64,000 bases of DNA from contig CM052816.1 of assembly GCA_028534125.1 (NCBI GenBank), positions 11,472,001 to 11,536,000 of the forward strand, in the 5' to 3' direction. The position numbers were made by a program, and so were the translations under genes. Shown here piece after piece: positions 3,390 to 64,000 of the stretch. The notes beneath the pieces were generated by a model, which was not told the DNA's origin, made no database searches, and was given only the letters and a program-made list of their open reading frames with translations. The stretch is from Lama glama. Lineage: Eukaryota. Numbering within the stretch: position 1 is the first letter of the stretch; the number at the start of each line of letters is the position of its first letter.

Positions 3390-3889
3390 NNNNNNNNNNN
3401 NNNNNNNNNNNNNNNNNNNNNNNNNNNNNNNNNNNNNNNNNNNNNNNNNNNNNNNNNNNNNNNNNNNNNNNNNNNNNNNNNNNNNNNNNNNNNNNNNNNN
3501 NNNNNNNNNNNNNNNNNNNNNNNNNNNNNNNNNNNNNNNNNNNNNNNNNNNNNNNNNNNNNNNNNNNNNNNNNNNNNNNNNNNNNNNNNNNNNNNNNNNN
3601 NNNNNNNNNNNNNNNNNNNNNNNNNNNNNNNNNNNNNNNNNNNNNNNNNNNNNNNNNNNNNNNNNNNNNNNNNNNNNNNNNNNNNNNNNNNNNNNNNNNN
3701 NNNNNNNNNNNNNNNNNNNNNNNNNNNNNNNNNNNNNNNNNNNNNNNNNNNNNNNNNNNNNNNNNNNNNNNNNNNNNNNNNNNNNNNNNNNNNNNNNNNN
3801 NNNNNNNNNNNNNNNNNNNNNNNNNNNNNNNNNNNNNNNNNNNNNNNNNNNNNNNNNNNNNNNNNNNNNNNNNNNNNNNNNNNNNNNNN
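3390..3889. other. Assembly gap (500 N)
   Basis: Exactly 500 N, a fixed-size placeholder, preceded by a poly-T run. Confidence 0.99.
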
Positions 3890-4234: not shown

Positions 4235-4375
4235 GGGGTGGGGGTATAGCTTAGTGTTAGAGTGTGTGCTTAGCATGCACGAGGTCCTGGGTTCAGTTCT
4301 CTGTATCTCCGTTAATAAATAAACCTAATTACCCACCCCACCCCCCAAAAAAGACCTGATTAAATAAAATTTTTA
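4235..4375 (+). mobile_element. tRNA-derived SINE (Vic-type)
   Basis: GGGGGTATAGCTTAGTGTTAGAG..GGGTTCAGTTC..AATAAATAAACCTAATTACC, flanked by AAAAATATATAT repeats (TSD-like). Confidence 0.85.
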
Positions 4376-4424: not shown

Positions 4425-4600
4425 GTGGGCAATGGGGAGCTATTGTTTAATTGGTACAGAGTTTCAGTGTGGGATGATGAAAAGCTCTGGAGCTGGGTAG
4501 CAGTGGTGATTGCACAACAGTGTAAATGAACTTAACGCCACTGACCTGTACACATAAAATGGCTAAAATGGCAAATTTTGTGCTATACATATTTTTAACT
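4425..4600 (+). mobile_element. Old L1 (L1M) 3' end
   Basis: GGTACAGAGTTTCAGTGTGGGATGATGAAAAG..GGTGATTGCACAACAGTGTAAATG..AAAATGGCTAAAATGG. Confidence 0.8.
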
Positions 4601-11700: not shown

Positions 11701-12749
11701 CGGGGAAGACCTTCCCACCCTCTGCTACCCTTCACAGCAGGGAGTCGTGAGACTCTGCTGCTGGTGTATTAGCTTCCTGTAGGTGGGAGTACACAGAATG
11801 CAGCTCAGACTTTCGAAGAATGCCAACCATCCAGGCCACAGCTCGCCATGTCCAGTTGGACACACTAACTCCAGGGGTGACAGCAAATAATCCTGCTGGA
11901 GTCACAAAGACCACGTCCCTCTCTTGAGATGTGCCTTTACCAGGATCCCCACAACGAGACTCACAGCCAGGTTAAAGTCCTAAGATGGGCTTGCAAGGCT
12001 GGACAGAGCAATTCCCATTATCCAAACCCCCCAAAGCATTGCTGGGTGATCTCCTGAGAGGCTCGACTGGGTCTGTTTGTTTTTTATTGCAGCCTCCGAT
12101 GTGCATTTTGTGTGTGTTCTATGCATTTGTTAAAGAACGGCTCCTGGACACCTCTGCTGTACTTTCACAGCCCAGCCTGTCCTGCCAGTCACTCCACCCA
12201 CATACCCGCTTCCTTCCCGCATGAACTTTGGGCATCAGGTGTCTTTGATAACCTCGAACGATTAAGAACGAGCATTGTCATAATGTTGCTTTATGACTGG
12301 GAGTGGAAAGATGGATCTGGGTAAAATACAAGCAAAACCCGACGTTTGGAAACTTCTCAGAGATCTCAAAAGCAGCAAGCGGTTAGATTTGTTTTCTCTC
12401 TTTTTCCCACCCTCTGCATTTCCCCTGCTGTGGTTGGCCTCAGAACAGCAGAAATGAGAGACCAAAAATCTAAGCAAGAAGGCTTTCCTTGACCTACCAC
12501 TTTCTGGACAAGAAGCAGGGAGAACCTAGGAAGCTGTAACAATGCTAAGAATTCCCGGATGGATTAGAGAGGCTCAGGATTCCACCAAATCCTAGCACAA
12601 CTATCGCCGCCCACAGAAATCTATCCCCAGGGAATCCTCCGCGGCGCTCTCTGAAATGTAACTAAAAGAAGAGAACCTCTCACGGGCGATGCACACAAAC
12701 CCAGCCTCCAAGTGGACACGATGATGTGAACAAATCAGATCTTTCTTAC

Positions 12750-13127
12750 CCCATCCATGTGGACTCTGATGTTCGGCACCGGCCGGAAAGGGCTGCACTG
12801 CAGACCTCCGGGCTGAGTCCTGCTTTTCCTGCCGTCCTGCGAGGCCAGCACGCCGGGCCTGCGGAAGGAGCCCCGTCTGCCCGAGCCTGGCCCCGAGCGC
12901 ACCCCGTCCAGGAGACGCACGAGCAGCAGGTTGGCCGGCAGTGCCTCGATGCTGCAAAACACCAGGGTCCGGCATTCGGGGCACCTCAGCTCCTTGTGGG
13001 CCTTGAAAATCCTCTGGAGACATGGTTTGCAGAAGGTGTGCTGGCAAGGGAGGACTTTGGCTGTGACATCGAGCTTTTCGAGGCACACGGGGCACTCCAG
13101 AAGATCAAGTAAGGTCACATCATCCAT
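12750..13127 (-). CDS. SH3RF2: SH3 domain-containing RING finger 2, first coding exon (RING domain, 126 codons); gene continues off the left edge
   Basis: Translates [79 protein letters not shown]...HMDG, a C3HC4 RING with the POSH/SH3RF-family [13 protein letters not shown] motif. ATG at 13127, phase-0 donor GGG|GTAAGA at 12749. Lies head-to-head with GRXCR2 as in other mammals. Confidence 0.95.
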
Positions 13128-23109: not shown

Positions 23110-23609
23110 NNNNNNNNNNNNNNNNNNNNNNNNNNNNNNNNNNNNNNNNNNNNNNNNNNNNNNNNNNNNNNNNNNNNNNNNNNNNNNNNNNNNNNNNNNN
23201 NNNNNNNNNNNNNNNNNNNNNNNNNNNNNNNNNNNNNNNNNNNNNNNNNNNNNNNNNNNNNNNNNNNNNNNNNNNNNNNNNNNNNNNNNNNNNNNNNNNN
23301 NNNNNNNNNNNNNNNNNNNNNNNNNNNNNNNNNNNNNNNNNNNNNNNNNNNNNNNNNNNNNNNNNNNNNNNNNNNNNNNNNNNNNNNNNNNNNNNNNNNN
23401 NNNNNNNNNNNNNNNNNNNNNNNNNNNNNNNNNNNNNNNNNNNNNNNNNNNNNNNNNNNNNNNNNNNNNNNNNNNNNNNNNNNNNNNNNNNNNNNNNNNN
23501 NNNNNNNNNNNNNNNNNNNNNNNNNNNNNNNNNNNNNNNNNNNNNNNNNNNNNNNNNNNNNNNNNNNNNNNNNNNNNNNNNNNNNNNNNNNNNNNNNNNN
23601 NNNNNNNNN
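23110..23609. other. Assembly gap (500 N)
   Basis: Exactly 500 N. Confidence 0.99.
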
Positions 23610-30980: not shown

Positions 30981-33919
30981 GGATTTAAATGAGACCAATG
31001 AGGGAATTCAGGCATGGAGACAGGTGAGGGATGGGGAGATATTTGGGGATATCCCTAGGTGTTCACCGGTCCATGGGACAGAGCCCAGTAATCTCATCAA
31101 GAGGCATCACTGGGCCAATCCTGAGGATGCACTCTATCACTGAGCTATACCCTGCCCCACCCCAGGCGGTAAACTTCTAGATCATGGGCCGTGTTCTCTT
31201 CTCTCTGTTGGCCAGTCCCCGGCACAGCGCCTGCCACACACTGGGGATGCTGTCAGGGTTTACAGAATGACTCGATGAACTCAATGAGCTGGAGAGTGTT
31301 TTGTCGTTGTCGTTGTTTTTTGATCATGGTCCTTGTCTGTATCCTGCACACGTACCCTCATTCTCACACCTCCTTTCTTTCTGAAATGTCCTTAAAGTCA
31401 TCCCCAGCTCTGGGGAGACTGGAACACAGAAACACAAACTCGTGGGTCCAAAAACCAGGGAAACCTGAGAAAGAACAACAAGCATTGCTTGCTTTCTGCA
31501 CCGTTTGTGCCTTGGGAATTGACTTTGGGGAAGAAAGGAGACTTGGGAATTGGTTCCTGGTGGTGGGGTGGGGTGGGGGCAGCGGGCATTTTCTGTGGAG
31601 AATTGGTCTATCCCAACCCAGCAATACCGTTCTGTAACTTAGAGGAGACGTGGGCTCTGGAGACTTCCAGCCCTGGAAATAAGTGCTTTCTCAGAAAGAA
31701 CAGGGAATTTACAAAATAGATCTGGCGATGGCTCCCACTGCTGTTGGGGATGAAACAGGGGGTTTGTGAGTTTCCTGAATGCTGCTGTGATTCTAAACCA
31801 GGGACCATCTTGATTCTGTATCGGCTTCCATTGTTTTTCCCATAACCTCTTATGAATAGTGGCGGCAATGACATTGATGAGGACAGTGCCCTTTCTTTGA
31901 GGGTTTGCTCTGCACAACCCTCCCTCATTTCTCATGACAACTCTATAAGATTAGTTATAATCTCGACCCCATTTTACAGATGAGGAAACTGAGGCTCAGA
32001 GGGGTTAAGTGGTTTCTCCAAGGTAACACAGCCAGTCATCTTAGTCTGATCATTGTTTGAGTCCTGGCCTCGAGAGCTGCATCCACGTCCTCCACCATCC
32101 TCTGTACTGCCTCCTTTGAAAATTATAAGGTTGAGTTTGTGATCAATCAGATTGTTCAGACTTGCCTCTGAAGTATTTTCTAGGCAGTTCAAATAAGGCC
32201 CTTCAAAATACAGATTGTGTGTGTTTCCCTGACAAGAAATCCTCCCCTCCCCGATACCTCCACTTCAAGGGTTTTTTTTTTTTTTAATAGATGCCCCCCT
32301 ACCCCAGGGTTCAGCCTGGAGCCTGGGGGAGAAAATGGGACAGGAAAACAATGAAATAGCAGAAAACAAAAGACCCCAAGGCCTGTAACCAATCTTGAAT
32401 GAAACACACTTCCCCAGCCTCCCAAAATGCCAATCTGATTCTCTTTGTTCTAAAAGCTCTGGTTTCACAGAGCATCAATTTCCCCTAATAACAAGCTTTT
32501 TCTATTCTTCCTTGAATGACGCAGCCTGGTCTTGAGGATTCTCATCATCTTTATTGCTCATCCGGGATGATAGACACATGCACAGCGAGTTTGTCACTTC
32601 CCTTTTCTTTTCCTTTCCCATCACACATGATTCCCGCCCCAGCACAAGCAGAGGCTCTGAGCAGCGTCCCACCTTTTTCTCCACCCCCTCGCCTCCCATA
32701 CAGCCTAGCACAGCTCTCTGACTTCCCTGCAGAGCGTCATCTGGTCCCCATGAATAAGCTCATCTTTCTCCCCCAGGTCCCCACACCTCCGTGGTGACTC
32801 TTATCAGCCGGGTGCGCTGTGGGCAATTCCCCGTGGGGTCCGGCATGTCTGACAGGTTGTATGTTTAAGTCAACATTTGTCCTGCGTGAACTCTGTTCCA
32901 AGCACAGGCTGAGAGCTGAGAATGGATGGTCTCAATTGCTGCTCAAAACGTCCCGAGGAGGGGTGTCCTGGTGATAAACCCACTGTACACATGAGGAAAC
33001 CGAGGCACAGGGAGATGTTCAAGGACACACAGCCTTCTAGTGTCCAGAGTCCGGAGCCCAACTTCTTAATCGGCAGGGCTCACCAGCTTGGGTTTTGTTC
33101 TGGAAACCTGTAGGTAATCTCTGGTTTTTGAAGTTCTCAGCCCACAGGACCCTAGAGAACTAAGGTGGACAGTAACCTCGGAAAGGTCAAGCCAGGCAGT
33201 AACAGTAACTAGAGGGGTTTACAGAACATCCACAGACCATTGAAGGTGACCTGAACCTGGCCATTCTCTCCCAGTAGGGAGAGCACAGGAAAGGTGGCGG
33301 GCATTGGCCCCCTGCACCTGCCTCCATCTGTCAGCTCCTGCAAGGCCTCTTCCTGGTCGGTGGTTTGCATCCTCCTCACACTTCCTCTCGTCTCGGTCAT
33401 CCATAGATAGGCAGAGTGCCCTTAGCACAGCAGTCCTCACGTTTCAGGTCAGGATCACTTAGGGAGCTGATCTGAACTGCAGGTTCTGGAAATTCTGACT
33501 CAGGAGGCCTAGGAAAGGCCCAGAGACTTCATTTTCCAAGCACCTTTGGTGATCCTGATGCAAGAGGCCTCCAAGCCACTCTTGAAAAGCAACCCCTGCT
33601 TCTCAGACTATAGCATCAGGACAAGGAAACAAAAAGCACTTTAGATGGTAGTGACCTGATTTTGCCTCGAGCAGTCCCCTCTGGATGCCCGAGAGCGGAA
33701 CTGAAATCCTGGGACCCCAGCAACACTTGGTTGCCTGCCCTCACTCTGCGCTTCACCCTTGACCTCTGTGGCTGGGGAGGAGCTGTTCGTCTTTATCTGC
33801 TGTGCTTACTGTGGGAGCTCAGTGGCGTTTTGTTATTATTTTTTAATCTTCTTAACTAGGAGCAAGATTTTTATCTTTTGGTCTAAGATCTCCTACCAAG
33901 GGATTCCCTAACTTAAAAA

Positions 33920-34310
33920 AAATTTTTTTATTGAGGTATAGTCGATTTACATTGTGTTAGTTTCTGGTGTACAGCATAGGATTCAGTAATACGTATATAT
34001 GTTCCTTTTCGTATTCTTTTTCAGTATAGACCATTTCAAGATTATTTTTTTTGCATTCTTTTTTACTGAAGTCAGTTTGCAATGTTGTGTCAGTTTCTGG
34101 TGTACAGCATCCTGATTCAGTTATACACACACAAATATATATATATTCCGTTTCATATTCTTTTTCACTATAGGTTACCACAATGTATTGAATATAGTTC
34201 CCTGTGCTGTACAGTAGGACCTTGTTGTTCATCTGTTTTACATATAGTAATTAGTATCTGCAATCACGAACTCCCAGTTTGGATTCCCTCACCTTTGACT
34301 CCCTGTTTAG
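33920..34310 (-). mobile_element. Two adjacent/nested lineage-specific L1 3' ends
   Basis: Two occurrences of the reverse 3'-end motif (TTAGTTTCTGGTGTACAGCAT / TCAGTTTCTGGTGTACAGCAT), each preceded by poly-T, plus AATATAGTTCCCTGTGCTGTACAGTAGG. Confidence 0.8.
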
Positions 34311-35456
34311 ACTAACTGAAATGACCAGGAAGGAGTAGGGAAGAGATACTGCACCAGAGAAAGCTTATAAAGACAGCTGCTTGTTCAGGTACAGACACAG
34401 CTGAAGTTGCCCCAGATGTGGTTTCCTCCTGAATTGTGCTGGAAGCCCCACCTCCCACAGGAGGCTTTTTTCCCAAGAAGAGGAGTAGCCACCCACCCCA
34501 TCCCAGATACAATCTCCTGCACGGGCACTCCCAATTGTTATGCTTAATTTACAGCCAACTCATCAATGTCAAGTTGCCTGTAATCGCTTGCTCCATCAGG
34601 TTGGTAATAAACCTCTAAGCAGGTCATTCTGCAATTAGTTATTTGATTTTCTTTGGTCCACGGCGTGCTTCTAATTTTTCTGATGTCCACATAGGCTGTA
34701 GACTCTACTAGAGCAGGAAACATACTGATCTTGAGAGCAGCATAGAGCCTGAAATGCAGAAGGTGCTCTGTAAATGTTTGTTGATTAAGTGACTGTAATT
34801 CAGTGAATCACTTTTTTTTTTTGAGGTAGTTGTCCCCAGATGATATTCTATGGACTGGACCAGTGTAAGTGCATATGAAGTTTCATTCTTCTCAAAAAAT
34901 GAGAAAATGTAGAGCAGTGTATTAAGTTTTTCATAAAGCTAAAGTCATTCAATGTAAAAAGGCTGTCTATTCAGAGGCAATGTTCTTCCTAATTTGAGGG
35001 CATTAAAATTACCTTTATTCTATGAGGTGCTATAAAGAGATGTGACTGTATGACTCAGTTGACTCCCCACCCCAGTCTCTGGAGTCGGCTCCCTCCTTTC
35101 TTGCCTGGAGAACTGAAGTAGCTCAAGAAGTAGCCTGCCCGCATCCACTTCTCCCCTTTATCTGTCAGGACTTTTAGTTACAACTTAGAGAAGCTGATTC
35201 TAGCTGACCTGGATGTGTCCTCAAAGATAGAAAGACTATTTAAAAGATGGTGAATCTACAAATGCTTATTGCTGGAGTTGCTGTGGAGAAAAGGGAACCC
35301 TCCTACACTGTTGGTGGGAATGTAGTTCGGTGCAGCCACTATGGAGAACAGTGTGGAAATGCCTTAAAAAACTGAAAATAGACTTACCCTATGATCCAGC
35401 AATCCCACTTCTAGTCATATATCCAAAAGAAACTAATTCAAAAAGATACATGCAAA

Positions 35457-35576
35457 GGGGTGGAGGTACAGCTCAAGTGGTAAAGCACATGCTTAGCATA
35501 CATGGGGTCCTGGATTTAATCCCCAGTACCTCATCTAAAAATAAATAAGTGAACCTAATTACCTCCCCCATCAAAT
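35457..35576 (+). mobile_element. tRNA-derived SINE inserted into an L1
   Basis: SINE consensus interrupts the L1 sequence AAAGATACATGCACCCCAATG; imperfect TSD AAGATACATGCA / AAGACATATGAA. Confidence 0.85.
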
Positions 35577-35685
35577 AAGACATATGAACCCCAATGTTCA
35601 TAGCAGCACTATTTATAGTAGCCAAGACATGAAAGCAACCTAACTGTCCATAAATAGATGACTGGATAAAGAAGTTGTATATATA

Positions 35686-35726
35686 TGTGTGTGTGTGTGT
35701 GTGTGTATATATATAAGCTGTGTGTG

Positions 35727-35764
<38 letters not shown>
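35686..35764. repeat. (TG)n..(CA)n compound microsatellite within L1
   Basis: Directly visible TG run, TA spacer, short TG run and CA run. Confidence 0.9.
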
Positions 35765-35766
<2 letters not shown>

Positions 35767-36289
35767 GGAATACTACTCAGCCATAAAAAAGAATAAAATA
35801 ATGTCATTTGCAGCAACAGCAACATAAACATAGATGGACCTGAAGATAGTCATTCTAAGTGAAGTTAGCTAGAAAGAGAAAGAAAAATACCATATCACTT
35901 AAATATGCAATCTAAAAAAAAAAAGAGGACACAAATAAACTTAACAAAAAAGAGACAGACTCACAGACAAACTTGTGGTTACCAGTGGGGAATGGGGTGG
36001 GGAGAAATAAATTAGGAGCTTGGGATTTGTAGATACTAACTACTGTATGTAAAATAGGTAAACAACAAGGATGTACTGTATAGCACAGGGAACTATATTC
36101 AGTATCTTGTAATGGCCTATAATGAAAAAGAATATGGAAAGGAATATACATATGTATAAATGAATCACTATGCTGTCCACCAGAAATTAACACATTATAA
36201 ATTGACTATACCTCAATTAAAAAATGGAAAAAAAATAACCCAGGCAAAAATTTTTTAAAAAATAAGACAATAAAATATGATGAGTATAA

Positions 36290-39709: not shown

Positions 39710-39960
39710 AATGCTAACAATTATTGAGTATTTATTATATGCTGGGTGCTGGGCTAAGTGCTTCATTTATCATAGTTCATTTAATCTTCTTGCTAAGCTT
39801 CTTAATAAAGTTAAAAGCTAATATTATGATCCTCATTTTGCAGATGAGGAAACTGAGCTCAGAGAGGGTGAGTAACTAGGTCAAGGTCACCCAGCCAATG
39901 AGTGACAGAGTAGGGGTCTGAATCCAAGCACTCTGCTTCCAAAGCCCTGAGCCTTACTCC
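39710..39960 (-). mobile_element. MIR (representative; further MIR fragments near 3900, 8000, 9200, 15300, 22200, 29500, 32000, 42700, 59800, 63500)
   Basis: MIR core CCTCATTTTGCAGATGAGGAAACTGAGCTCAGAGAGGGTGAGTAACT..CAAGGTCAC. Confidence 0.85.
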
Positions 39961-43950: not shown

Positions 43951-45504
43951 TATTTACAGTGAGTTAGTATGGAATCTTAAAATCAGTGGGGGGGTGCTCT
44001 ACCTATATTGACATGGAAACATCTCCAAGATATATTTTAAAATTTTAAAAATCAAGTTAAACTATTAATATATATTTAAATATAAATTTTATAATATATC
44101 TATACATCTGCATATGTATGCATACATGTATATATAGTAACTTCATTTATGTTTAAAAAAACAAAGCCATGTATTTGTATCTGCATACATATATATAATA
44201 TACATATATAAACACATAAAATGTTAGGAAGGCCATATTCTAGACATATACTAACAATTGCTTTTTAGGAAGAATGAAGGAGACCTTTTGTTTTATTCTA
44301 TATGTCTCTCTAATTTTAAAACGTTATCCTACAAAAGGCTGTATTAATGTATTTCTTGTGTCTGTTTTTATTTAGATTTTCTATGTTGATGTACATTTTG
44401 AAAAAAATTAAGTATATGTGCAGAAAATTTAGCACTCTTTCTTACATTTTCCGGGATCCACTAACCTGGACAAGTTGCTAGCAGAGAGGTTTTAAATGGA
44501 AGGTGTGAATCTCTGACCAATGGAGTGTCCTAGCCCACTTGACCTGATTCCCCCCACCAGACCCACATACTTTCCCACATGATACTGTGAGCGCCTTGGG
44601 AGCAGAGCCATGATTGTTTGGGTCCCTGCTGTAGCCCTGTGTTCTAGCACAATGCTGTGGACTTAGGAGGTGCACAGTACATATTTGTTTCCTTGAGGCA
44701 GCTCTCTCCTCCCTGTCCCCTGGAATCTTTCAGCCATGGGAATTCCTAGGGCTGTCTGGGATGCAGCCTCAGTTCGCTCTCCTCCCTGCAGGTGGCAGTC
44801 TTCATCGGCTGGAGCGAGCTGCACTTCTAGAGCAAGGGCTCTCAATCCATCAGGCACAAAGCGTGCTTTCCGTTAACACTTATTTCACAACACCCCTTTA
44901 CCATTCTGGAATGAAATTAATAGATGCAATAATCCTCCTACAAATATAACTTCGAAAACCAACACATCGCCCTTGCTTTAATAGAGAAATAAAAGGAAAG
45001 TAATTGATAATAAAATACTGTGTATTTTAATGGCAAATGCTTGGGTGTGATTTCCCTAGAAGATATGAAGATGCTTTACACATGTCTAGGACCCCCGTGA
45101 ATGGCACAGCCACAGATACTGTCTGATATAGGAGCAGCATTTCAATTTCTGAAGCAATTTTTCAAAATGGTAGACAATTCCTGGTAGAACAAACACTAAA
45201 TGAAACAAAGTACCAACTTCTCTTAACTTATATGCATTATCAGTCCCCCCAAAATATATTGTATATTAAAGCCACACTCAACACTCTCACCAAAAAAAAC
45301 AAACAGGTTCTAGGCTGAGATAATAATACACAGGTGTTTTACCTAGGCAGGCCAATTTTTTGTTGTGCAGAACTACTCTTTATATTGCAGGATATCCATC
45401 TCCCTGGCCTCTCACCCACTGATTGCCGCCACTGAACCTTGAAATGTGACTAGTGGGATTAAAGAACTAAACTTTTAATCTAATTCAATTTACACATACT
45501 TCTT

Positions 45505-46335
45505 TTATTCTTATTTTTTATTGAACTGGAGTTGATTTACAATGTTAATTTCAGGTGTACAGCAATGCAATTCAGATATACATATATGTACATATATGTA
45601 TATATTTTCCAGATTCTTTTCCATTACAGCTCATTACAAGAAATTGAATATAGTTCCCTGTGCTGTACAGTAGGTCCTTGTTTATCTAGTTTATGTACAG
45701 TAATGTGTATCTATTCATCCCAAGCTCCTTTTTTTCATATTTTTTAACAGTTTTTATTGAGTTACAATCATTTTACAATGTTGTGGCAAATTCCAGTATA
45801 GAGCACAATTTTTCAGTTATACGTGATCATATGTATATTCATTGTCATATTTTTTTCTCTGTGAGCTACCATAAGGTCTTGTATATATTTCCCTGTGCTA
45901 TACAGTATAATCTTGTTTATCTGTTCTACATTTTGAAATCCCAGTCTGTCCCTTCCCACTCCCCACCCCCTTGGCAACCACAAGTTTGTATTCTATGTCT
46001 ATGAGTCTGTTTCTGTTTTGTATTTATTAATTTATTTTAGATCCCACATATGAGCGATCTCATATGATATTTTTCTTTCTCTTTCTGGTTTACTTCCTCA
46101 GAATGATGATCTCTAGGTCCATCCATGTTGCAGCAAATGGCATTATTTTATTCTTTTTTATGGTTGAGTAGTATTCCATTGTATAAATATACCACATCTT
46201 CTTTATCCAGTCATCTGTTGATGGACACTTAGGCTCTTTCCATGTCTTGGCTATTCATCCCGAACTCCTAATCTATCCCTCCACCCTCATTTCCCTCTGG
46301 TAACCATAGTTTGTTTCCTGTGTCTGTGAGTCTGC
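45505..46335 (-). mobile_element. Nested L1 3' ends (younger L1 45730-46250 inside older L1), within a Charlie-like DNA transposon remnant
   Basis: Inner TSD CTATTCATCCCAAGCTCCT (45711-45729) / CTATTCATCCCGAACTCCT (46251-46269); outer CACATAC-T-rich repeats at about 45494 and 46336. Confidence 0.85.
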
Positions 46336-49209
46336 ACATACATTTTTAAAACTTTTAAGTATGATTGGAACAACGTGGGTATGTGAGTCTACTTTGTCAG
46401 TTGTTAATTTTATGAAATTATAAATTTCATTTGTTTATTTTCTACTTTTTTAACATTGCTACTGGAAAATTAAAAAATATATGTGTGTTATGTTACATAC
46501 ATATGTATATTTCTCCTGAAGAGTACTGAGATAGAGAAAAATCAGGACTGTTTTGCAGCCTCAGAGAGCTCTCCTTGCTTTCTCTCTGGTAGGAATAAAG
46601 GAGTTAGAAGAACTAGTTCCTTATTCTCTAGGTGGCAAACCAGGGGCTGCAGGGACAGGGTTGTTGCAATGGGAGAATAATCCCAAGTGATTATTTTTTA
46701 ATGAAGTCCCAGATTTTGGCCTGTGGTTTCTGGCAGGGTTGATGCTTTTCCACTACACTCACCCTCTGCTCGGTCCTCAGGGAACCTTCCCTTTACATTC
46801 TGACGTGGGGGTTTTGGCCTGTGATACACAGATTGCTGCCAGCTCTGCTCAGAGGCAGTGAGGAAAAGCCATTTCAGAGTACAAAAAGATGGCCCATCTC
46901 TCCATGCAGGCAATTTACAGATGATGCTGGTGGTTAAATTTCAAAGCCAACCGTGGGGTCGCCTCTGAGGCAGAACTTAGAGAACCAGCCGCACTGGTAG
47001 CCAAGTCACATCCCAGCCACAGAGAGTCCTCACTGATCCTATATTCACACGTTTATTATGGGTTTTAGATGAGACTAGACTTGTTAAAATCCTTTCCTGT
47101 CCCACTTTTAAAGACTTGACGTTTCCCTTCTCAGTGATCAGCTTGATGATGTGAGAGAAGCATTAATGTTGAGAAGCCTGAACTTTGGGGTCAGACCTGG
47201 GTGAGTGAGAATAACAGCTGACATTTCATGGCTGTGGGACCCTGGGCAGATAGCGTGACCTCTTTGAGCTTCTTTCTTTAACATACCTCCCTCGTCCATA
47301 GCAAATGCTCAATAAACAGTGGCTGTTCTTTACTATGAAGAGGGTGAGAGTCAGAGGTGGCAAGACTTTTTAAGCCAGAAACCATCTTAGAACAGCATCT
47401 CTGAGATTCTTTTTCTCAGAGCACTGGTTTCATGAAATAGAATTCCAACTTAGGAGTTTTGTGGGCACTACATTTTAGAAACGGTGTTTCCCCCACTTGG
47501 AGACTGACCAAGTCCATTAGTATATTTAACATTCTGGGAAGTCCTGCAGTAAAGAAATCAGTTTCACTTGACTTAACCCAGAAGTTCCCAAACTTATTGG
47601 GATTTTTCCTCCCATGAAATAACTATTAGTTCTGTGGGTTACACTTTGGGAACAGATGGCATGGGAGAAAATGCCTTATTTTCCAATCAGAGCCTCTTGA
47701 TCCCACACTTTGGATAGGCTGGTCTCCTCATCAGATTGTCCTGTGATACGGGGCAGGAGGGGGACAAGTGGGACAGGCCACCAGACTATGTTCCATGTCA
47801 CCTACATCCGGAAGGAGCTTAGACAACCTTATACATTTTTTTGAACAATGGTGATGTGAGCTATGATAATCTCTTGAAACATTGCTTTGGAAATTTCTGT
47901 TATGGTTGGTGGTAGAGCAGTGGGGGACCGGAAACTTAGATTTTGGTTTTCATGTTTTTTATAAAGTTGCATGAACTCTCACAACATTCTAGGAATGATC
48001 AATGGCTATAATAATCTTCTGCCATAACAATATTTTAAAAAGAAATGCCAGACTGGGGTTTAAATACACACACACCTCTGCATGGTAATGTATGAGCAGA
48101 TTAAGAGGATATGTTTAATTTATAAGCCCTACACTGATTAGAAAAGATAGATGTGGAAAGATCACTAAAGGGTAATGTTCATACTCAATTTGCAATAATT
48201 GCACATTTCTTTCATCAAGACACATATCTAATGTAATCTCCCAAATCCCAAAGTACACATAAAAATAAAGTCCAGTAAATGACATCAGACAGGATAGGAT
48301 CAAAATTCTACTCAGTGAAGATTCAGAATATACTAGAATCTAAATCAAAATGCACAGAAGCAAACCTCGATACCTGTGAATACTTTCGTGAGAGCAATTT
48401 TGTCGCCAATTGGTATTATTAACATTTCAAACATTAAAACACTGGAATAGTACAATAAATGACCATCAAGAATATTTATTAATAAATAAATGAATATTAA
48501 TGAGCATTTTCATTTTCATTTCATATATATGCATATATATTTAAATATGCATATATAGTGAGGGCATACATTTTTTTCATGATAAATTGCAGACACCATG
48601 ACATTTTACTTTAAATATTCTAGCATGTATCTCCTACAAAAAGGCATTCTCATACATAATCACATAACGTTATCCTGCCTATGAAAATGAAAAATAATTC
48701 TCTAATTCCATCTGACACCAGCTCTAGAGTCGTTTCTCCAGGAACCAATCAAGCAAGGCTCATATATTGCATTTGGTTTTATCTCTTTAAATCTAGAGTG
48801 TTCTGCTTATCTCAACATTTTTTCCCTGTATATTGACTTTTTTGGATGAGACTAGTTGTCTTGTGGGATGTCCCACATAGTAGCTTTGTCCGTCTGTTTC
48901 TTCTTGGGATCTTTTAGTTCATTCATCTATCATCACCTGTGCTTCTTGTTAACCAAAAGTTAGGTCTAAAGACTTGATTACATAAATATTTAACATTTTT
49001 GCCTAAAATTCTTCATTAGTGGAGTGATCATTTATTCCCCTTTGCCTCCTGTCCCAGTATAACTGTAAATAGTGCTTTTCAGTGTTGAGAATGTCCTCCT
49101 TTGGACACCCCATCTGTAAATGAAGCATCACATTAGGAGACACAGAATGTCTGTTTACCCCACCATTAGGGATAAAGTATTCTCTAAGTAATGAAAAAAA
49201 AGTAATAAA

Positions 49210-49466
49210 CTGGAACCCTCCTACACTGCTGGTGAGAATGTAGTTTGGTACAACCATTATGAAAACAGTATGGAGATTGCTTAAAAAACTAAAAATAGAC
49301 TTTCCATACAATCTAGAAATCTCACTCCTGGGCATATATCTGGAGGGACCTCTAATTCAAAAAGATACATGCACCCCAATGTTCATAGCAGCACTATTTA
49401 CAGTAGCAAAGATATGGAAACAATCTAAATGTCCATTGACAGATGACTGGATAAAGAAGATGTGGG

Positions 49467-49497
<31 letters not shown>

Positions 49498-51140
49498 ATG
49501 GACTACTACTCAGCCATAAAAAAGAATGAAATAATGCCATTTGCAGCAGCATGGATGGACCTAGAGATTATCATCCTAAGTGAAGTAAGTCAGACAGCAA
49601 AAGACAGATATATGATATCACTTATATGTGGAATCTAAAAAAAAGACACAAAACAACTTTTACAAAGCAGAAACAGACTCACAGATGTAGAAAACAAACA
49701 TGGTTGTAAAGGGGAAGGGAGGGGAGAGGGTAAATTAGGAATTCAGGATTAACAGTTACACACCACTATACATAAAATAGATAAACAACAAGGATGTACT
49801 GTAACCTCACACCAGCCAGAATGGCCATCATTCAAAAGTCCACAAATGACAAATGCTGGAGAGGCTGTGGAGAAAAGGGAATCCTCCTACACTACTGGTG
49901 GGAATGCAGGTTGGTACAGCCACTGTGGAGAATAGTATGGAGATTCCTCAAAAGACTAGGAATATACTTACCATATGACCCAGGAATCCTGCTCCTGGGC
50001 ATATATCCAGAAGGAACCCTACTTCAAAAAGATACCTGCACCCCAATGTTCATAGCAACACTGTTTACAATAGCCAAGACATGGAAACAGCCTAAATGTC
50101 CATCAACAGATAACTGGATAAAGAAGCTGTGGTATATTTATACAATGGAATACTATTTAGCCATAAAACGACAACATAACACCATTTGCAGCAACATGGA
50201 TGTCCCTGGAGGATGTCATTGTAAGTGGAGTAAGCCAGAAAGAGAAAGAAAAATACCATATGAGATCGCTCATATGTGGAATCTTAAAAAAAAAGAAAAG
50301 AACATAAATACAAAACAGAAACAGACTCATAGACGTAGAATACAGACTTGTGGTTGCCAAGGGGCCGGAGGGTGGGAAGGGACAGACTGGGAGTTCAAAA
50401 TTTGTAGATACTGACAGGCATATGTAGAATAGATAAACAAGATTATACTGTATAGCACAGGGAAATATAGACAAGATCTTGTGGTAGCTCACAATGAAAA
50501 AAATGTGACAATGAACATATGTATGTTCATGTATAACTGAAAAATTGTGCTCTACACTGGAAATTGACACAACATTGTAAAATGACTATAACTCAATGAA
50601 AAAAAATTTAAAAAAAAACCCTGAGACTTAGAGAGGGCAAGTGACTTGTCCAAGGTCACACAGTCACATGAGATGCCAACTCAAGTCTGCTCAATTCCAA
50701 AGCCTGTACCTTAGACCAGGGCTGTCCAATAGAACTCTCTATGGTGATGGTAATGTCTATATCTGCACTGACCAATACAATATTGTCCAACGCAAGTGGC
50801 TGCTGAGCCCTGGAAATGGAGATAGTGTAACTGAGGAACTGAATTTTTAAATTTTCTTTATTTTTAATTTTAATGTATCTAGCTACCTGTGGCTAGAGAC
50901 TATTATATCAGACAGTGCAACTCTTACTCCTAATTGTTAAAATAAATAAATAAATCCCCCAACCAAAACCAAAACCAAAACAAAAACAAAAAAACAAGGA
51001 TGTACTGTATAGCACAGGGAACTATATTTGATATCTTGTAATAGCCTACAATGAAAAAGAATCTGAAAAAAATAGATGTATAATTGAATCACTTTGCTGT
51101 ATACCTGAAACACTGCAAATCAACTATACTTCAATAAAAA
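49210..51140 (+). mobile_element. Older L1 3' end interrupted by a younger L1 carrying a 3' transduction
   Basis: ORF2 peptides at 49259-49498 and 49794-50414; perfect 17-bp TSD AACAAGGATGTACTGTA at 49787-49803 and 50993-51009; host L1 3'UTR resumes at 51010. Confidence 0.9.
50717..50920 (+). mobile_element. MER3-type hAT DNA transposon (inside the transduced segment)
   Basis: CAGGGCTGTCCAATAGAACT..GATGGTAATGTCTATATCTGCACTG..GTAACTGAGGAACTGAATTTTTAA..GACAGTGCA. Confidence 0.75.
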
Positions 51141-51314
51141 AGGTAATAAGCCCCATATGAGATTATAATTGATTAATTTTGTTTCTTAAGTCATCTCTAC
51201 TTTCAAAAACCCATCAGAATTTTCTGTGACTGGATACAATCCTGAGTAAATGATTCTACCTTAAGTTTGACTCAAGTTAAAGTCACTTTTTTTTGTATTA
51301 AAATGGTATGAAAA

Positions 51315-52556
51315 TTAAAGACCTAAAGGTAAGACCAGATACTGTAAAACTTGTAGAGTAAAACATAGAACACTCTGACATAAATTGCAGCAATATTTTT
51401 TTCGAACCAGCTGCTAAAGTAATGGAAATAAAAGCAAAAATAAACAAATGGGACCTAATTAAAAAGCTTTTGCACAGCTAAGTATACTATCAACAAAATG
51501 AAAAGACAGCCTACAGAATGGGAGAAAATATTTGCAAATGATGTGACTGACAAGGAACTAATTTCCAAAATATACAAACAGCTCATATACCTTAATATCA
51601 AAAAAACAAGCAACCCAATCAAAAAGTGGGCAGAAGACCTAAATAGACATCTCTCCAAAGAAGACATCCAGATGGCCAATAAGCACATGAAAAGATGTTC
51701 ACCATCGCTAGTTGTTAGAGAAATGCAAATCAAAACTACAGTGAGGTATCATCTCACACCAGTCAGAACAGCCATCATTAAGAAGTCTACAAATAAATGC
51801 TGGAGAGGTTGTGGAGAAAAAGGAACCCTCCTACACTATTGATGGGAATGTAAATTGGTGCAGCCACTGTGGAGGACAGTATGAAGATTCCTTAAAAACC
51901 TAAAAATAAACTTACTATATGATCCAGCAATCCCACTCCTGGGCATGTATCTGGAGAAAAATACAATTCAAAATGACACCTGCACCCCAATGTTCACAGC
52001 AGCACTATTTACAATAGCCAAAATATGGAAACAACCTAAATGTCTATCAACAGATGACTGGACAAAGATGTTGTGGTATATTTATACAATGGAATATTAC
52101 TCAGCTATAAAAAAGAATAAAATAATGTCATTTGTAGCAACATGGGTGGACCTGGAGATTGTCGTTCTAAGTGAAGCAAGCCAGAAAGAGAAATAAAAAC
52201 ACCATATGATATCACTTACATGTGGAACCTGAAAAAAAGACACGAACTTATTTACAAAATAGAAACAGACTCACAGACACAGAGAAAAACTTATGATTAC
52301 CGGGGGAAAGGGAGTGGGAAGGGATAAATTGAGAGTCCCAAGTTTGCAGATAGTAACTACTATATAAAATAGATAAACAACAAGTTTATACTGTATAGCA
52401 CAGGGAACTACATTCAATATCTTGTAGTAACCTGTAATGAAAAAGAATATGAAAACAAATATATGTATGTTTGTGTATGACTGAAACATTGTGCTGTACA
52501 CCAGAACTTGACACAACATTGTAAACTGACTATACTTTCAATAAAAAAGAATGGAA
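51315..52556 (+). mobile_element. 5'-truncated L1 (ORF2 C-terminus + 3'UTR)
   Basis: [76 protein letters not shown] (51300-51314) / AAAATGATATGAAAA (52557-52571). Confidence 0.92.
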
Positions 52557-53139
52557 AAAATGATATGAAAAAATACATTTTTTTTACAATAAAATGATGT
52601 GATTTCCTATTAGTTGTATTCATCCAGAGGGAAAATGACAGAAGTTGCAGATTTCATTGTCTGCAGCCAATTGCATAAATTCATCTGTATCTTAAATTTT
52701 AGGCACAGTTTACCTTAAAAGAAAACAGGTTTTTTTGTAATGTTAATAACAATACTAATTATGAGAAATTTGGAAAAAATATAGAAAAATATAAAAAATA
52801 AAATAAACATCACCTCTAATCACCTTCTCAGACAGAACCATTTTTAACATTTTAAAGGATTAACTTTGAGTCTTTTCTCCTTTACAATTTTATGTAGTAA
52901 ATTCTCTATCACAGACCAAAAACATTTTGGTGACAACTTTTCCCACTTAATTTGTTTCATAAGTATTTTCCCATATTATTTCAAACTCTGTAAATTTTTT
53001 AAAAAATGACTATGCGCTCTTTCATTTTGTGGCATTCCTACTGTTAAATATTTAAGTTTTCAGTTTTTTTCCCATTGTGAATAATGTTATAGAGAACATT
53101 TGTCTCTATAAATATTTCTCTCCACTTAAAATGTTCTCC

Positions 53140-56100
53140 TTAGGAGTGCTCCTAATCACTTCCGGTTTGGCACTGCTAGATTCAAACTGATTTTTGCTCA
53201 GATAAACTCTTAAAGTTTTTTTTAAAAGAACATGAAAATGAATATATGTATGTATATGCATGACTGGAACATTGTGCTATGCACCAGAAATGGACGCATT
53301 GTAACTGACTGTACTTCAATTAAAAAAAAAAACTTCAAAATGTTTAATATGCCTCAATGTATCTTTTCAGGTGTGGTGACAGGAGAACCCAAGGAGACTC
53401 TCGGGGGGGGGGCCCCTAGGAGCAACGACCAACAGCAGGGAAGGCGCCTGTGGAGCATCTTCAGTTGCTGCTTTCCTGCCACCCCTAGAGCTGGTGAGTA
53501 AGTTTCCTCCATCCTCCATCCATATCATTTGCATTATAAACTTTCAGACTTTATTTGAACTTTTCTCTCTGGAAACTGCTGGAGTTGGACTGTACCTACA
53601 TTAGACTGGGTCCAAGGTTGGACTGGTTGTGACTTAATCTGGACCGGGTTAAATATGACTGGATAGAGCTGTGGGTTGCACCCCTTTTGCAGCTAGGGTC
53701 CTTCCAACTGTTGTCAGCTCTCAGGGAAATTGTCTAAGTCCTTTTTCCTTTTGGGAGTGGCTCTGGATCTTGGGAAGGTGGTATCTTTTGCACCCTCTTT
53801 GGGGATCCGTCTTCATCCAAGAGATTGTTCAATACTGCCAGGAATATTTACTATTTGTCCCAGCTGAAACCTGAAAAAATATTTGCAAGGATTTTTTTTT
53901 TTTTGAGTAGTTCTTTGCTCAGAACTTGGCCAAATTGGAAGCTGATGTTCAGAGCCTGATAAGAACTTTTGTTTTAGACCTTCTCCCTTAAACTAATGAA
54001 ACTATGTATCCAGATGGAAAGAAAAACATTCAGAAGCCATTGTGGAAGGAGTTGTATTCCAGAGACACACAGGTCTAAATCTAGAATGTAGGACTCTTGA
54101 TCTCCCATCTTAGTTGAAGATCTTCTATTGATATAAAGAAGCAAATAGAGCATAATGTAGTTGGATGGCTGCTTCAGCCTCCTGATGTCATTCATTCAAG
54201 TTGCAATCCAGTTCTTTGAGGAATTAAAAACAACTGTATTTGCCTTACAAATTGAGCCTTTACAAGAACAGAAATTCAACTCTAGGAATGATTCCAAGCC
54301 ACCTATCCTTTTTACCAATCCCAGAATCTCCACTTTTCATGTCAAAAGCCTTGCAGATACTGTAGAAGATAATAGATCTAGGGGGGAAAGCCCTTCTTGG
54401 AGATACTTACATCCTTTCTCTGAGCCTTTGAGATGTAAATGTTCCACCTGGTCTTCTCTAGGAACCTAGAGCCATCTCTTGAGATGCAAACTACAAGAGC
54501 GGTAATTCTGATCCAGAAAATAAAAGATACTTGGAAATTAAGTGAATGAAAACTCTTAAAGTCTTTTAATAAATATTAGTAAAAGCCTTAGCCATCTGAG
54601 AGGTAACTGCAACTTATCCTATCTGCCAGAAACACAATTTGGATCCAACTGTTCTTTTATAAACCAGTGAGTATTCTATTACTGTACCTGTCTTATGGCT
54701 AAAATTTAAAAGTAAAAGCTATAAGATCTCTGCATTCATCTGTATGTTTATGTATGTGTATGTATGTGTGTTATAGATGTTTGATATTTTCGACCTCCTA
54801 ATAGTATTGCCAAAAGTAATTTGTAAAGAACTGTTCAACTGGCTTAAAGACAAACATTGATATAAATCAAGTCTACGCTCAGAAATGTAGAAGCTAACCC
54901 AAATGTTTTTCAAGTTCATGTGATGTAGGATAATCTTTGGCAAGTAGAAGCTAGTTGAAGCTTGTTGGTTTAATTAAAATAGGCATGTCTTCAGAGTTAC
55001 AGCATTAAAAATAATTCTTTCATTCTACCTAGGTTTACTAGAAGTCAAATAAGCTCATGTTATCTCTGTTACAGAATTTGTCAGCAAGAAAGATAGCTTA
55101 AGATGATGGCTAGCTACTTAATGTCTCATGAAGTTTTCATGAGTAATCTAAACATAATTGTTAAAACAAGTGAATTAAATAGCTGTGAGTGAGGTTAAAC
55201 CCTAAAAGTGAACTTTTCAACAATAATAATGCTTTAGGTATGTCTACTTAAAAGTAATTTCCAAAATATTTTTGGTAACTGAAACCTTACAGTTATGAGA
55301 TTATTTAAATGATGGATATTCGTTGAGTATCTAGATCACTTCCAAATAAGGAAAAATACTGAAATATAAATTACCGACATAGATTTATCCACTTTTGATT
55401 TCCTTTTACAGAGAACTATAGATGTTTGTGTGTATTAGTAAATATGTTTTGTAACACATTCAAAATTTTACTATGAGGAAGAATATACTTGTAGAAATTG
55501 TGAAATGTGTTTACAAATTTGCCAGTCCAAAGAATGCTGTGTAGCAGATGGTTCACAATCGCTTACTTCTTAGCTTTCACTAGAAATAAAGGGTTCTAAG
55601 GGTTAAGGATTCTAATCAGTATATGTAATTACGCTACTTAGAAAAATCAGAGCGTAAAGGAACAATTGTGTGAAAAGGAACAATTGTGTTAAAAGTAGAC
55701 AGGAAAATAGACTGACCGGTTGTTCCAGAGTTAGGAAGAGAAAAACACAGGGCAAGACCTGAATGGATATAAAAATATTGTAGAAGGTTAGTGGAAAAGG
55801 AACCTTGGAGAAGGAATTTTATGTATGGTCAAGCTGACTAAAATGAGAATGGATTTATTTAAATTTTTAAGGATGAATTTTAATATGAAAAGTATATAAA
55901 ATTAGAGTTTGTCCTTCTCTCTTTGCAAAGTGTTCTTGGAATGTCGGTCGGCTCTTGATTGTGAAAGGTTGCTGTTGTTGGTTACCTTTTGGGTAATCCA
56001 CCTGGAAAGCAAAGGTTTGGAGTCTTCCAAAATCCTTTCCTGTGCTTCATTTCGTCTTTATTGGATCTCTTATTACTTAAGAAAACCCAGTCATCTCAAT

Positions 56101-59270: not shown

Positions 59271-60320
59271 ACCATTTCAGCTGTTCTTTGAGACCCAATG
59301 CAAGGGCTCTTCCTTTACAAGCCTTCTTCTTCCATGCTTGTCTCCCGAGGGACCGCTCTCTTCCCAGAATAGCTCTTCTGGCAGTCAGCAGTGGATGGTT
59401 TGCTCCCTAAGCAGGAGGCTATGATTTCATGTGTGTTAGGTTTGTTTCCTAAGCTGGATTGTAGGGCTGTGCATTTCAAGCCCCACATCTTGTGCTTCTC
59501 TGATATTCATCCCAGCGACCATGTCCCAGTGTTAGGCATTCACCAGGCTCTGTCTGCAGTAGGCAGTGGGGCCTCATGCTGTGCTTGCAAATGAAATCTT
59601 AAGTATAAAATTGATATAAAGTGAAGCTGCTCTGGCTAAGTAAGGGGTAGAAGGCGCAGAATCCATGACCCGTGTCTTCCTCCTGTCAGGGCTCCAAGAG
59701 GCACAGTTTGAAAACCTCCAGCTTGGTGGACTGGTCATGGGTTTTGGTATCAGTTAGAACTGAGTTCAGATCTTGGCTCTGTTCCTTGACTGTACAATAG
59801 AGCAGAGAAATGGGGAAACTGCTCTGAGCCTTACTTTCCCCTCTGTAAAATGGGGACAATAACACTCTCGTTGTAGTTTTATTGTGAGAACAAAGATATT
59901 GCATGTAAAAATCTCTGGCACCCATGAAATGTTCACTACGTCAGTTGTTAGTAAAAATAACAAGACACTTGCTAACTGATCCTTATTGAACCGGTTACTT
60001 ATTCAGTCTAAATAAACCTACTCATGTTCATGGTAAGAAAAGCCAGGGTTGGGGAGAAGTTATTGGTGGGTTTGGGATTCAGAGGGGACCCAGTCTTGTC
60101 TTACGCTCCATCCATTCCACCAGCCTGCAACTGCCTGCCTTTGCATGAGGGCCTATCAATATTTAATGTGTGGGTGTCAGTGCTGTAAACTGAGCATACC
60201 CCAGCACCAACCTGAATTAATTATATGCAGGAGGAGAGAAAATAAAATGCCTTTTTCTCAGAGCCCCAAGTTCCACTGGCTCCACGGAAGCCTGGAAACC
60301 ACAGGGTGAAATTTCTGCTC

Positions 60321-60656
60321 ATGGAGGATCCCGAGAAGAAGCTGAGCCAGAAGAGTGACAGCAAACCCCGGAAAGTACGCTTTAAAATCTCTTCCTCCTA
60401 CAGTGGCCGGGTGTTGAAGCAGGTCTTTGAAGATGGACAGGAATTAGAGTCGCCAAAGGAGGAATATCCTCACAGTTTTCTCCAAGAGGCCCTTGAACCA
60501 ATGGATGGTGTTTACGGGTCTGGGGAAGCCCCCAAGCCCCGACCGTGCTCCCCCAAGCTGACTGCTCAGAGGATCAGCGTGGTTAGAGAGGGCAGTGCCT
60601 ACACTTTGGCAGGCAGCCAGCCTTTCTTCAATGATTACAAGGCGAATGACCATAAG
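60321..60656 (+). CDS. GRXCR2: Glutaredoxin and cysteine-rich domain-containing 2, first coding exon (112 codons); gene continues off the right edge
   Basis: MEDPEKKLSQKSDSKPRKVRFKISSSYSGRVLKQVFEDGQELESPKEEYPHSFLQE...YKANDHK matches the GRXCR2 N-terminus (GRXCR-family KVRFKISSSYSGRVLK motif). ATG at 60321, phase-0 donor AAG|GTTGGT at 60657. Confidence 0.95.
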
Positions 60657-62944: not shown

Positions 62945-63435
62945 CAGATATATTTATACACCAGTATTCATAGCAGCACAATTGCCCACAGGTGGAAACA
63001 ATTCAAATGTCCACCAATAGATGGGTGGGCAAACAAAATGAGGTACATACATACAATAGAATATTGTTCAGCCTTAAAAGGAAGGAAATTCTGACACATG
63101 CTACGACATGGATGAACCTTGAAGACGTATGCTAAGTGAAATAAGCCATTTTTAAAAACATGATTGTTTGAGTCCACTTATATGAGGTCCTAGTGGCATC
63201 AGATTGACTTATAGAGACAGAAAGTAGAACGGTGCTTGCCAGGGGCTGGGGACGGGAGAAGGTGGAGTTTAATAGGTCCAGAGTTTCAGTTTGGGAATAA
63301 GAAAAAGTTCTGGAGATGGGTGGTGGAGATAGTTTCACAACAATGTGAACGCACCAAAGCCACTGAACTGTACCTTACAAAAGGCTAAAGCGGTAAATTT
63401 TATGTTATGTATATTTTGCCACAATAAAGTCATAA
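62945..63435 (+). mobile_element. L1MB-type 3' end
   Basis: CAAATGTCCACCAATAGATG..ACATGGATGAACCTTGAAGAC..GTTTCAGTTTGGGAATAAGAAAAAGTTCTGGAGATGG..TTTTGCCACAATAAA. Confidence 0.85.
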
Positions 63436-64000
63436 TAAAAAGCAAGGTTCTGATGTCAGTTATACCTGGGCTCGCTGTCCATTTTACCCACTTAACTGTG
63501 TGAGCTTGGGCAAGCCACTTCCCCTTGTGACTACAGAAGTACTTATGAAGATTGGTGTGGTGGTTAAAAAATATATAATACGTAAGAAGGACTTAGCATT
63601 GTGCCTGGAACATTGTGTATGCTCGGTAAATGTTACCTACCAGTGTGATAATGGCTAGGTTCTTATCAAAGAAATATCGAGTCTTTTAAAATTTTACATG
63701 ATGGATAGAGAAAGTGGTAATGAACAATCAGATATTTTAAGGAATTGAAACCATTTTTATAAGGTTCATAAAAAAAATGAAAGAAGCAAAAAATGAAATG
63801 TTCAGTGTATGTTAGTGAACATACACTTTGTACATATTATGCAATTTTATCTTCACAACAATTCTCTTTTATATACTGAAAAAAAAAAACAGAAGTTCCT
63901 TGGGGTTAAATAACTTGTTGATCTCACACAGCGGTCAAATAATATTTGAATATAATTTGGACTCATGTCTGCCTCCCTCCAAAGTCCACTGAGTTTCTAG

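Follow-up and report, generated by a model that had tools for sequence, protein, structure and literature searches.

LINE-1 (L1) 3' transduction was reportedly described by Moran in 1999, by Goodier and by Pickeral in 2000, and by Szak in 2003. Counts are available for two mammals, with 268 of 7103 human polymorphic L1s reported as high-confidence 3' transductions of 8–997 bases (PMC9311842) and 18 transductions reported of 1121 dimorphic L1s in the dog (PMC7980453). More generally, inserts driven by L1 carry AATAAA 10–30 bases ahead of their tail (PMC5110952). The same report describes class 1 templated insertions, with a duplication of more than 5 bp and a signal 10–20 bases before the tail, and class 2 patches, which in its account bear a microdeletion or microhomology and no duplication, signal or tail (PMC5110952). 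Literature searches listed no paper on camelid L1 3' transductions, although supplements could contain such loci, and a camel repeat survey gives the process one sentence (PMC8605555).

The locus considered here lies in a 64-kb stretch of DNA (the window, meaning the whole of the sequence analysed) and is very likely the product of one L1-driven insertion into an older L1. Like a partnered L1 3' transduction, it consists of a truncated sense-strand L1, a tail, non-L1 DNA, AATAAA and a second tail within a single enclosing duplication, and the length of its extra DNA falls inside the range of 8–997 bases reported for human L1 transductions (PMC9311842). Unlike the human and dog cases it is camelid, decayed rather than recent and polymorphic, has AATGAA as the L1's own signal, and would come from a source L1 whose existence we infer. 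It shares with class 1 templated insertions a duplication longer than 5 bp and an AATAAA 10–20 bases ahead of the tail (PMC5110952), but differs from them in that two thirds of the present insert is the 3' end of a sense L1 with its own tail. With the repair duplications and class 2 patches as they are reported, it has in common genomic DNA with old repeats lodged inside another repeat (PMC2671141; PMC5110952); the duplication, the signal, the tail, the intact host and the want of any donor in the window set it apart from these. An insert of this kind is a commonplace and well-documented side effect of LINE-1 activity.

The target site

The host is the 3' fragment of an older L1. Its pre-insertion part (49212–49803), broken at 49467–49494 by a (GT)14 array, is 76% identical to the L1 at 51822–52395 and 70% identical to that at 35571–36080, and its 3' UTR continues beyond the insert at 51010–51141 with an AATAAA of its own at 51133. 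All features of the site are given on the + strand except a 204-bp element within the insert, for which strand is not given. The original prediction had described a perfect 17-bp target-site duplication and an exact resumption of the host 3' UTR behind it, and both claims stand, along with all of the coordinates that accompanied them. The left (49787–49803) and right (50993–51009) copies are identical, and the exact match extends 0 bases in either direction, while BLAST lengthens the duplication to 21 bp at the price of one mismatch (49783–49803 versus 50989–51009). Set against an uninterrupted copy of the same L1, the two host halves abut at 36080/36081, and in a second reference copy they likewise abut at 52395/52396. 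Excising 49804–51009 rebuilds a continuous L1 3' UTR from which no host base is missing, and the host parts on the two sides are equally distant from the two reference copies (83/83% and 82/85% identity).

The 17-mer has a third exact copy at 36064–36080, within the uninterrupted 3' UTR of a host-family L1, and near-matches at six more positions in the window with 2–3 mismatches and at one with 4. It is therefore an L1 family motif, and its perfect identity by itself proves little; separate host-family copies at 83% identity are expected to match at 17/17 about 4% of the time. The case for an insertion rests instead on the combination of exact register, no loss of host sequence, an abutting tail and the spacing of AATAAA. 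Dating the event from the identity of the duplication was considered and rejected as too weak, since 17/17 matches should arise in 42% of cases at 5% divergence and in 17% at 10%. A tRNA-derived SINE at ∼35455–35570 interrupts the L1 that holds the 17-mer at 36064.

At the strict 17-bp boundary the nick site is a poor fit to TTTT/A, the reported preference of the endonuclease (PMC5110952). Judged from the sequence, the 21-bp reading would place the bottom-strand nick at GTTT/AT, which is nearer to TTTT/A, at the cost of its one mismatch.

The truncated L1

The first part of the insert (49804–50598) is a 5'-truncated camelid-type L1 comprising the end of ORF2 and the 3' UTR, in sense orientation and complete through to its own tail. 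At the 5' end it joins the host bluntly and out of register (compared with the window copy at 51737–51772), as in 5' truncation and unlike homology-guided repair. Although Pfam assigned 0 families to the frame of the insert, that frame is 79–83% identical in protein sequence to six dromedary pieces that carry the name LINE-1 ORF2. A 2-base deletion near the end of ORF2 shifts the frame, and the inserted copy is dead.

This L1 had been described as young, a term that holds in relation to the older host L1 but not in the sense of a recent arrival. It is 89.5% identical to its nearest copy in the window (45.7–46.3 kb), compared with 80–81% to the host-type copies, and it carries the frameshift noted above. 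In the in-frame part of ORF2, 12 of 115 residues differ from the majority of the six dromedary pieces, which themselves differ from that majority by 5–13 residues (a pig piece differs by 18). We estimate the nucleotide decay of the inserted L1 at roughly 5%.

The position of the L1's own poly(A) signal (50595–50600) reads AATGAA. In the same column, the 45.7- and 52.5-kb copies have AATAAA and the 36.2-kb copy has another variant. The first A-rich tail follows at 50599–50618 in the form A8-TTT-A9. A separate duplication around this L1 alone would have marked two independent insertions, but this candidate was rejected, for the sequence that follows the first tail is not a repeat of the target.

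The window also provides a control from the insert's own subfamily, an L1 at ∼45730–46255 on the − strand (within the region 45480–46360) that is nested in the same orientation in the 3' UTR of an older L1. Its duplication (46251–46269 and 45711–45729) is 19 bp long and matches at 17 of 19 positions, with 2 mismatches. This copy has AATAAA and stops at its own duplication, with no extra DNA past the tail. On the L1 model, a few tens of bases separate its target from that of the insertion described above.

The non-L1 segment and second tail

Between the first tail and the second lie about 340 bp of non-L1 DNA (50619–50960). They open with a dispersed old-repeat fragment (50619–50716), which we take to be MIR and which matches 31989–32034, 39853–39902 and 63495–63525 at 78–87% identity (E 4e-5 to 1e-4). 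The 204-bp element that follows (50717–50920) has degenerate inverted ends and is presumably MER3, of the hAT-Charlie group. Those ends match at 11 of 17 positions, which is not significant alone, and an inverted repeat at 50764–50801 and 50881–50919 was equalled by 3 of 2000 shuffles, a figure to be read in the light of its halves having been picked after inspection. Neither a paralogue of this element below E 0.25 nor a second copy of the non-L1 segment was found within the 64-kb window; nor did Rfam yield a match inside the insert. If these names are right, the earlier argument from age, that MIR and MER3 have long been inactive, is sound. Orthologous MIR and MER3 copies are reported as common to 11 placental mammals (PMC3758187), and MER3 has been placed in hAT (PMC5753468).

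Near its end the segment has three overlapping AATAAA hexamers (50941–50954, with starts at 50941, 50945 and 50949). The second tail begins 14 bases past the end of the first hexamer and 10 past that of the second, and an AATAAA is so placed at 1420 of 62900 positions on the + strand (2.3%). This tail (50961–50992) has decayed to a period-6 (AACCAA)/(CAAAA) array with 24 A in 32 bases; A tails are reported to decay into A-rich microsatellites (PMC3812793). The hexamer cluster and the C-run look like the 3' ends of the window's tRNA-derived SINEs. Only frames of 31–74 codons cross the 3' junction of the insert.

Presence in sequencing runs

A survey with 37 sampled words from 50600–50960 listed 24 runs, 20 of which hold some words of the segment and 16 at least half. 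Nine of the 16 were marked as a possible source and hence set aside. The remaining seven, with shares of 0.68–0.95, come from five studies under four organism labels, and the segment, being found across labels and studies, is thus real DNA. Such shares speak for the presence of the segment only, whether here or at a donor locus, and do not show the junctions. A share of 0.69–0.73 equals about 1% divergence, and shares of 0.43 and 0.35 in two runs guessed to be RNA (they may be DNA) fit either partial cover or a relative ∼3% away. The low values (0.19, 0.05 and four of 0.00) are not evidence in either direction, and one of the 0.00 values comes from the same sample as a value of 0.92. In metagenome contigs an exact 24-base pattern was matched 0 times; such contigs have little power to reveal animal DNA, and the result is not evidence of absence.

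Origin of the insert

What can be seen at the site itself is the duplication, the register of the host halves, the sequence of the parts and the spacing between signal and tail. Three defining features of an L1 3' transduction are present, namely one duplication round both the L1 and the extra DNA, the 3' end of a sense L1 upstream, and a signal 10–30 bases before the tail; none of the features tested failed. The marks of class 2 and other repair patches were not found at the insert. The reading originally proposed is supported in part, and a partnered L1 3' transduction from a source L1 is in our judgement the probable origin. All features visible at the site fit it, although a retrocopied host transcript with a dead L1 inside it would leave the same marks here.

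Under a partnered transduction, a source L1 elsewhere, presumably of full length, would have been transcribed beyond its own poly(A) signal into ∼340 bases of downstream flank made up of old MIR-like and MER3-like DNA. The read-through RNA would then have been cut and polyadenylated 10–14 bases past the downstream AATAAA cluster. L1 ORF2p would have nicked an A-rich site within the 3' UTR of the older L1, priming on the new tail, and target-primed reverse transcription would have copied 1.19 kb of this RNA intermediate before stopping, leaving a 5'-truncated copy between duplications of 17–21 bp. If AATGAA was already present in the source, its departure from the canonical signal is an added reason for read-through; it may equally post-date the insertion. 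A bolder extension is that such a source read through as a rule and founded a camelid L1 lineage ending in the MIR-like and MER3-like flank, in which case many siblings would carry the segment and two long-dead repeats would have been spread anew. This we think improbable.

The main rival to partnered transduction is retrocopying in trans of a Pol II transcript from the host, be it a 3' UTR or an intronic or intergenic RNA, which amounts to a class 1 templated insertion. The last 1.2 kb of such a transcript, not driven by an L1 promoter, would have held the dead 3' end of a sense L1 and then the old repeats. Retrocopies of host RNA are reported to bear a duplication, signal and tail like those seen here (PMC5110952), and the inserted L1 shows a level of decay that is ordinary for dromedary ORF2 pieces. 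The two runs guessed to be RNA also hold part of the segment, subject to their being RNA at all. What makes this origin unlikely is that it requires the end of a sense camelid-type L1 to have lain by chance just 5' of the signal; partnered transductions, by contrast, occur commonly.

Alternatively, the final 50–60 bases could be a very short SINE tail, so that the insert would be a template-switch product or a nested chimera. Such a tail might have served at the donor as the priming tail, or might have been reverse-transcribed first, with the template then switching to the L1 read-through RNA. The window offers some parallels, as 6 of its 13 tandem AATAAATAA sites adjoin the end of a SINE body and a seventh lies in the tail of one, and several tandem AATAAATAA sites are followed by a C-run, like the one in the insert. 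SINE/L1 chimeras are indeed known, but in those described the other RNA sits 5' of the L1 (bioRxiv 10.1101/2025.02.02.635956). Here alignment finds neither a SINE body nor a spacer, whether upstream of the hexamers or between them and the C-run, and the likeness to SINE ends is one of low complexity. An origin of this kind therefore appears decidedly improbable.

A patch made by repair at the DNA level would have to be drawn from a locus that already held the L1, its flank and an A-rich microsatellite. Repair duplications are reported to reach 619 bp (PMC2671141), but the intact host, the 17–21-bp duplication, the signal with its tail, and the blunt, out-of-register 5' junction all speak against repair. 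The window contains no donor, and class 2 patches are described without the duplication, signal and tail seen here (PMC5110952); we accordingly give a repair patch very little credence. Least credible of all is that there was no single insertion, with two host-family L1 fragments flanking ancestral DNA or a misassembly via L1, since for all that the 17-mer recurs at 36064, that a 36-base exact word is common to the right host part and the copy there, and that the window has two gaps of 500 N, the two fragments must break within one and the same 17–21-base interval of the L1 model, keep their order and have a tail preceding the second, and neither is farther than the other from the reference copies.

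If partnered transduction is the true origin, the locus would add another worked case of L1 3' transduction, from camelids. It could then tag a former source L1, and could be a presence/absence marker among camelids.

Genomic setting

The window can be assigned to a camelid from the dromedary matches of the ORF2 frame in the insert (79–83%) and of the first coding exon of GRXCR2 (60261–60605, + strand; 98% identity to dromedary GRXCR2 at 83% query cover). The insert lies in an L1-rich stretch, ∼9 kb upstream of the GRXCR2 start codon. The insertion moves no gene, and the inserted copy is probably without function. A RING-finger coding exon at 12738–13127 on the − strand is presumably SH3RF2, going by synteny; it and the GRXCR2 exon point in opposite directions, away from one another. 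Both assembly gaps (3390–3889 and 23110–23609, exactly 500 N each) are distant from the insertion site.

Several further repeats were noted in the window. After the insert, a longer 5'-truncated L1 of host type lies on the same strand at 51300–52560, and a further L1 3' end at 53224–53330 completes a cluster of L1 ends on one strand across 4 kb. On the − strand, a tandem pair of L1 3' ends occupies 33920–34280, with an internal repeat at 33952–34029 and 34085–34173. Nine tRNA-derived SINEs, presumably of Vic type, lie at 1–97 and near 4240, 15720, 27180, 30890, 35460, 37010, 40140 and 62810. Rfam gave six tRNA-like matches in the window, every one of them a SINE head, and several of the window's SINEs terminate in (TAAA)n and a C-run. 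Finally, a pair of 150-bp repeats at 4445–4595 and 63267–63417 shares 76% identity with 59 kb between the copies.
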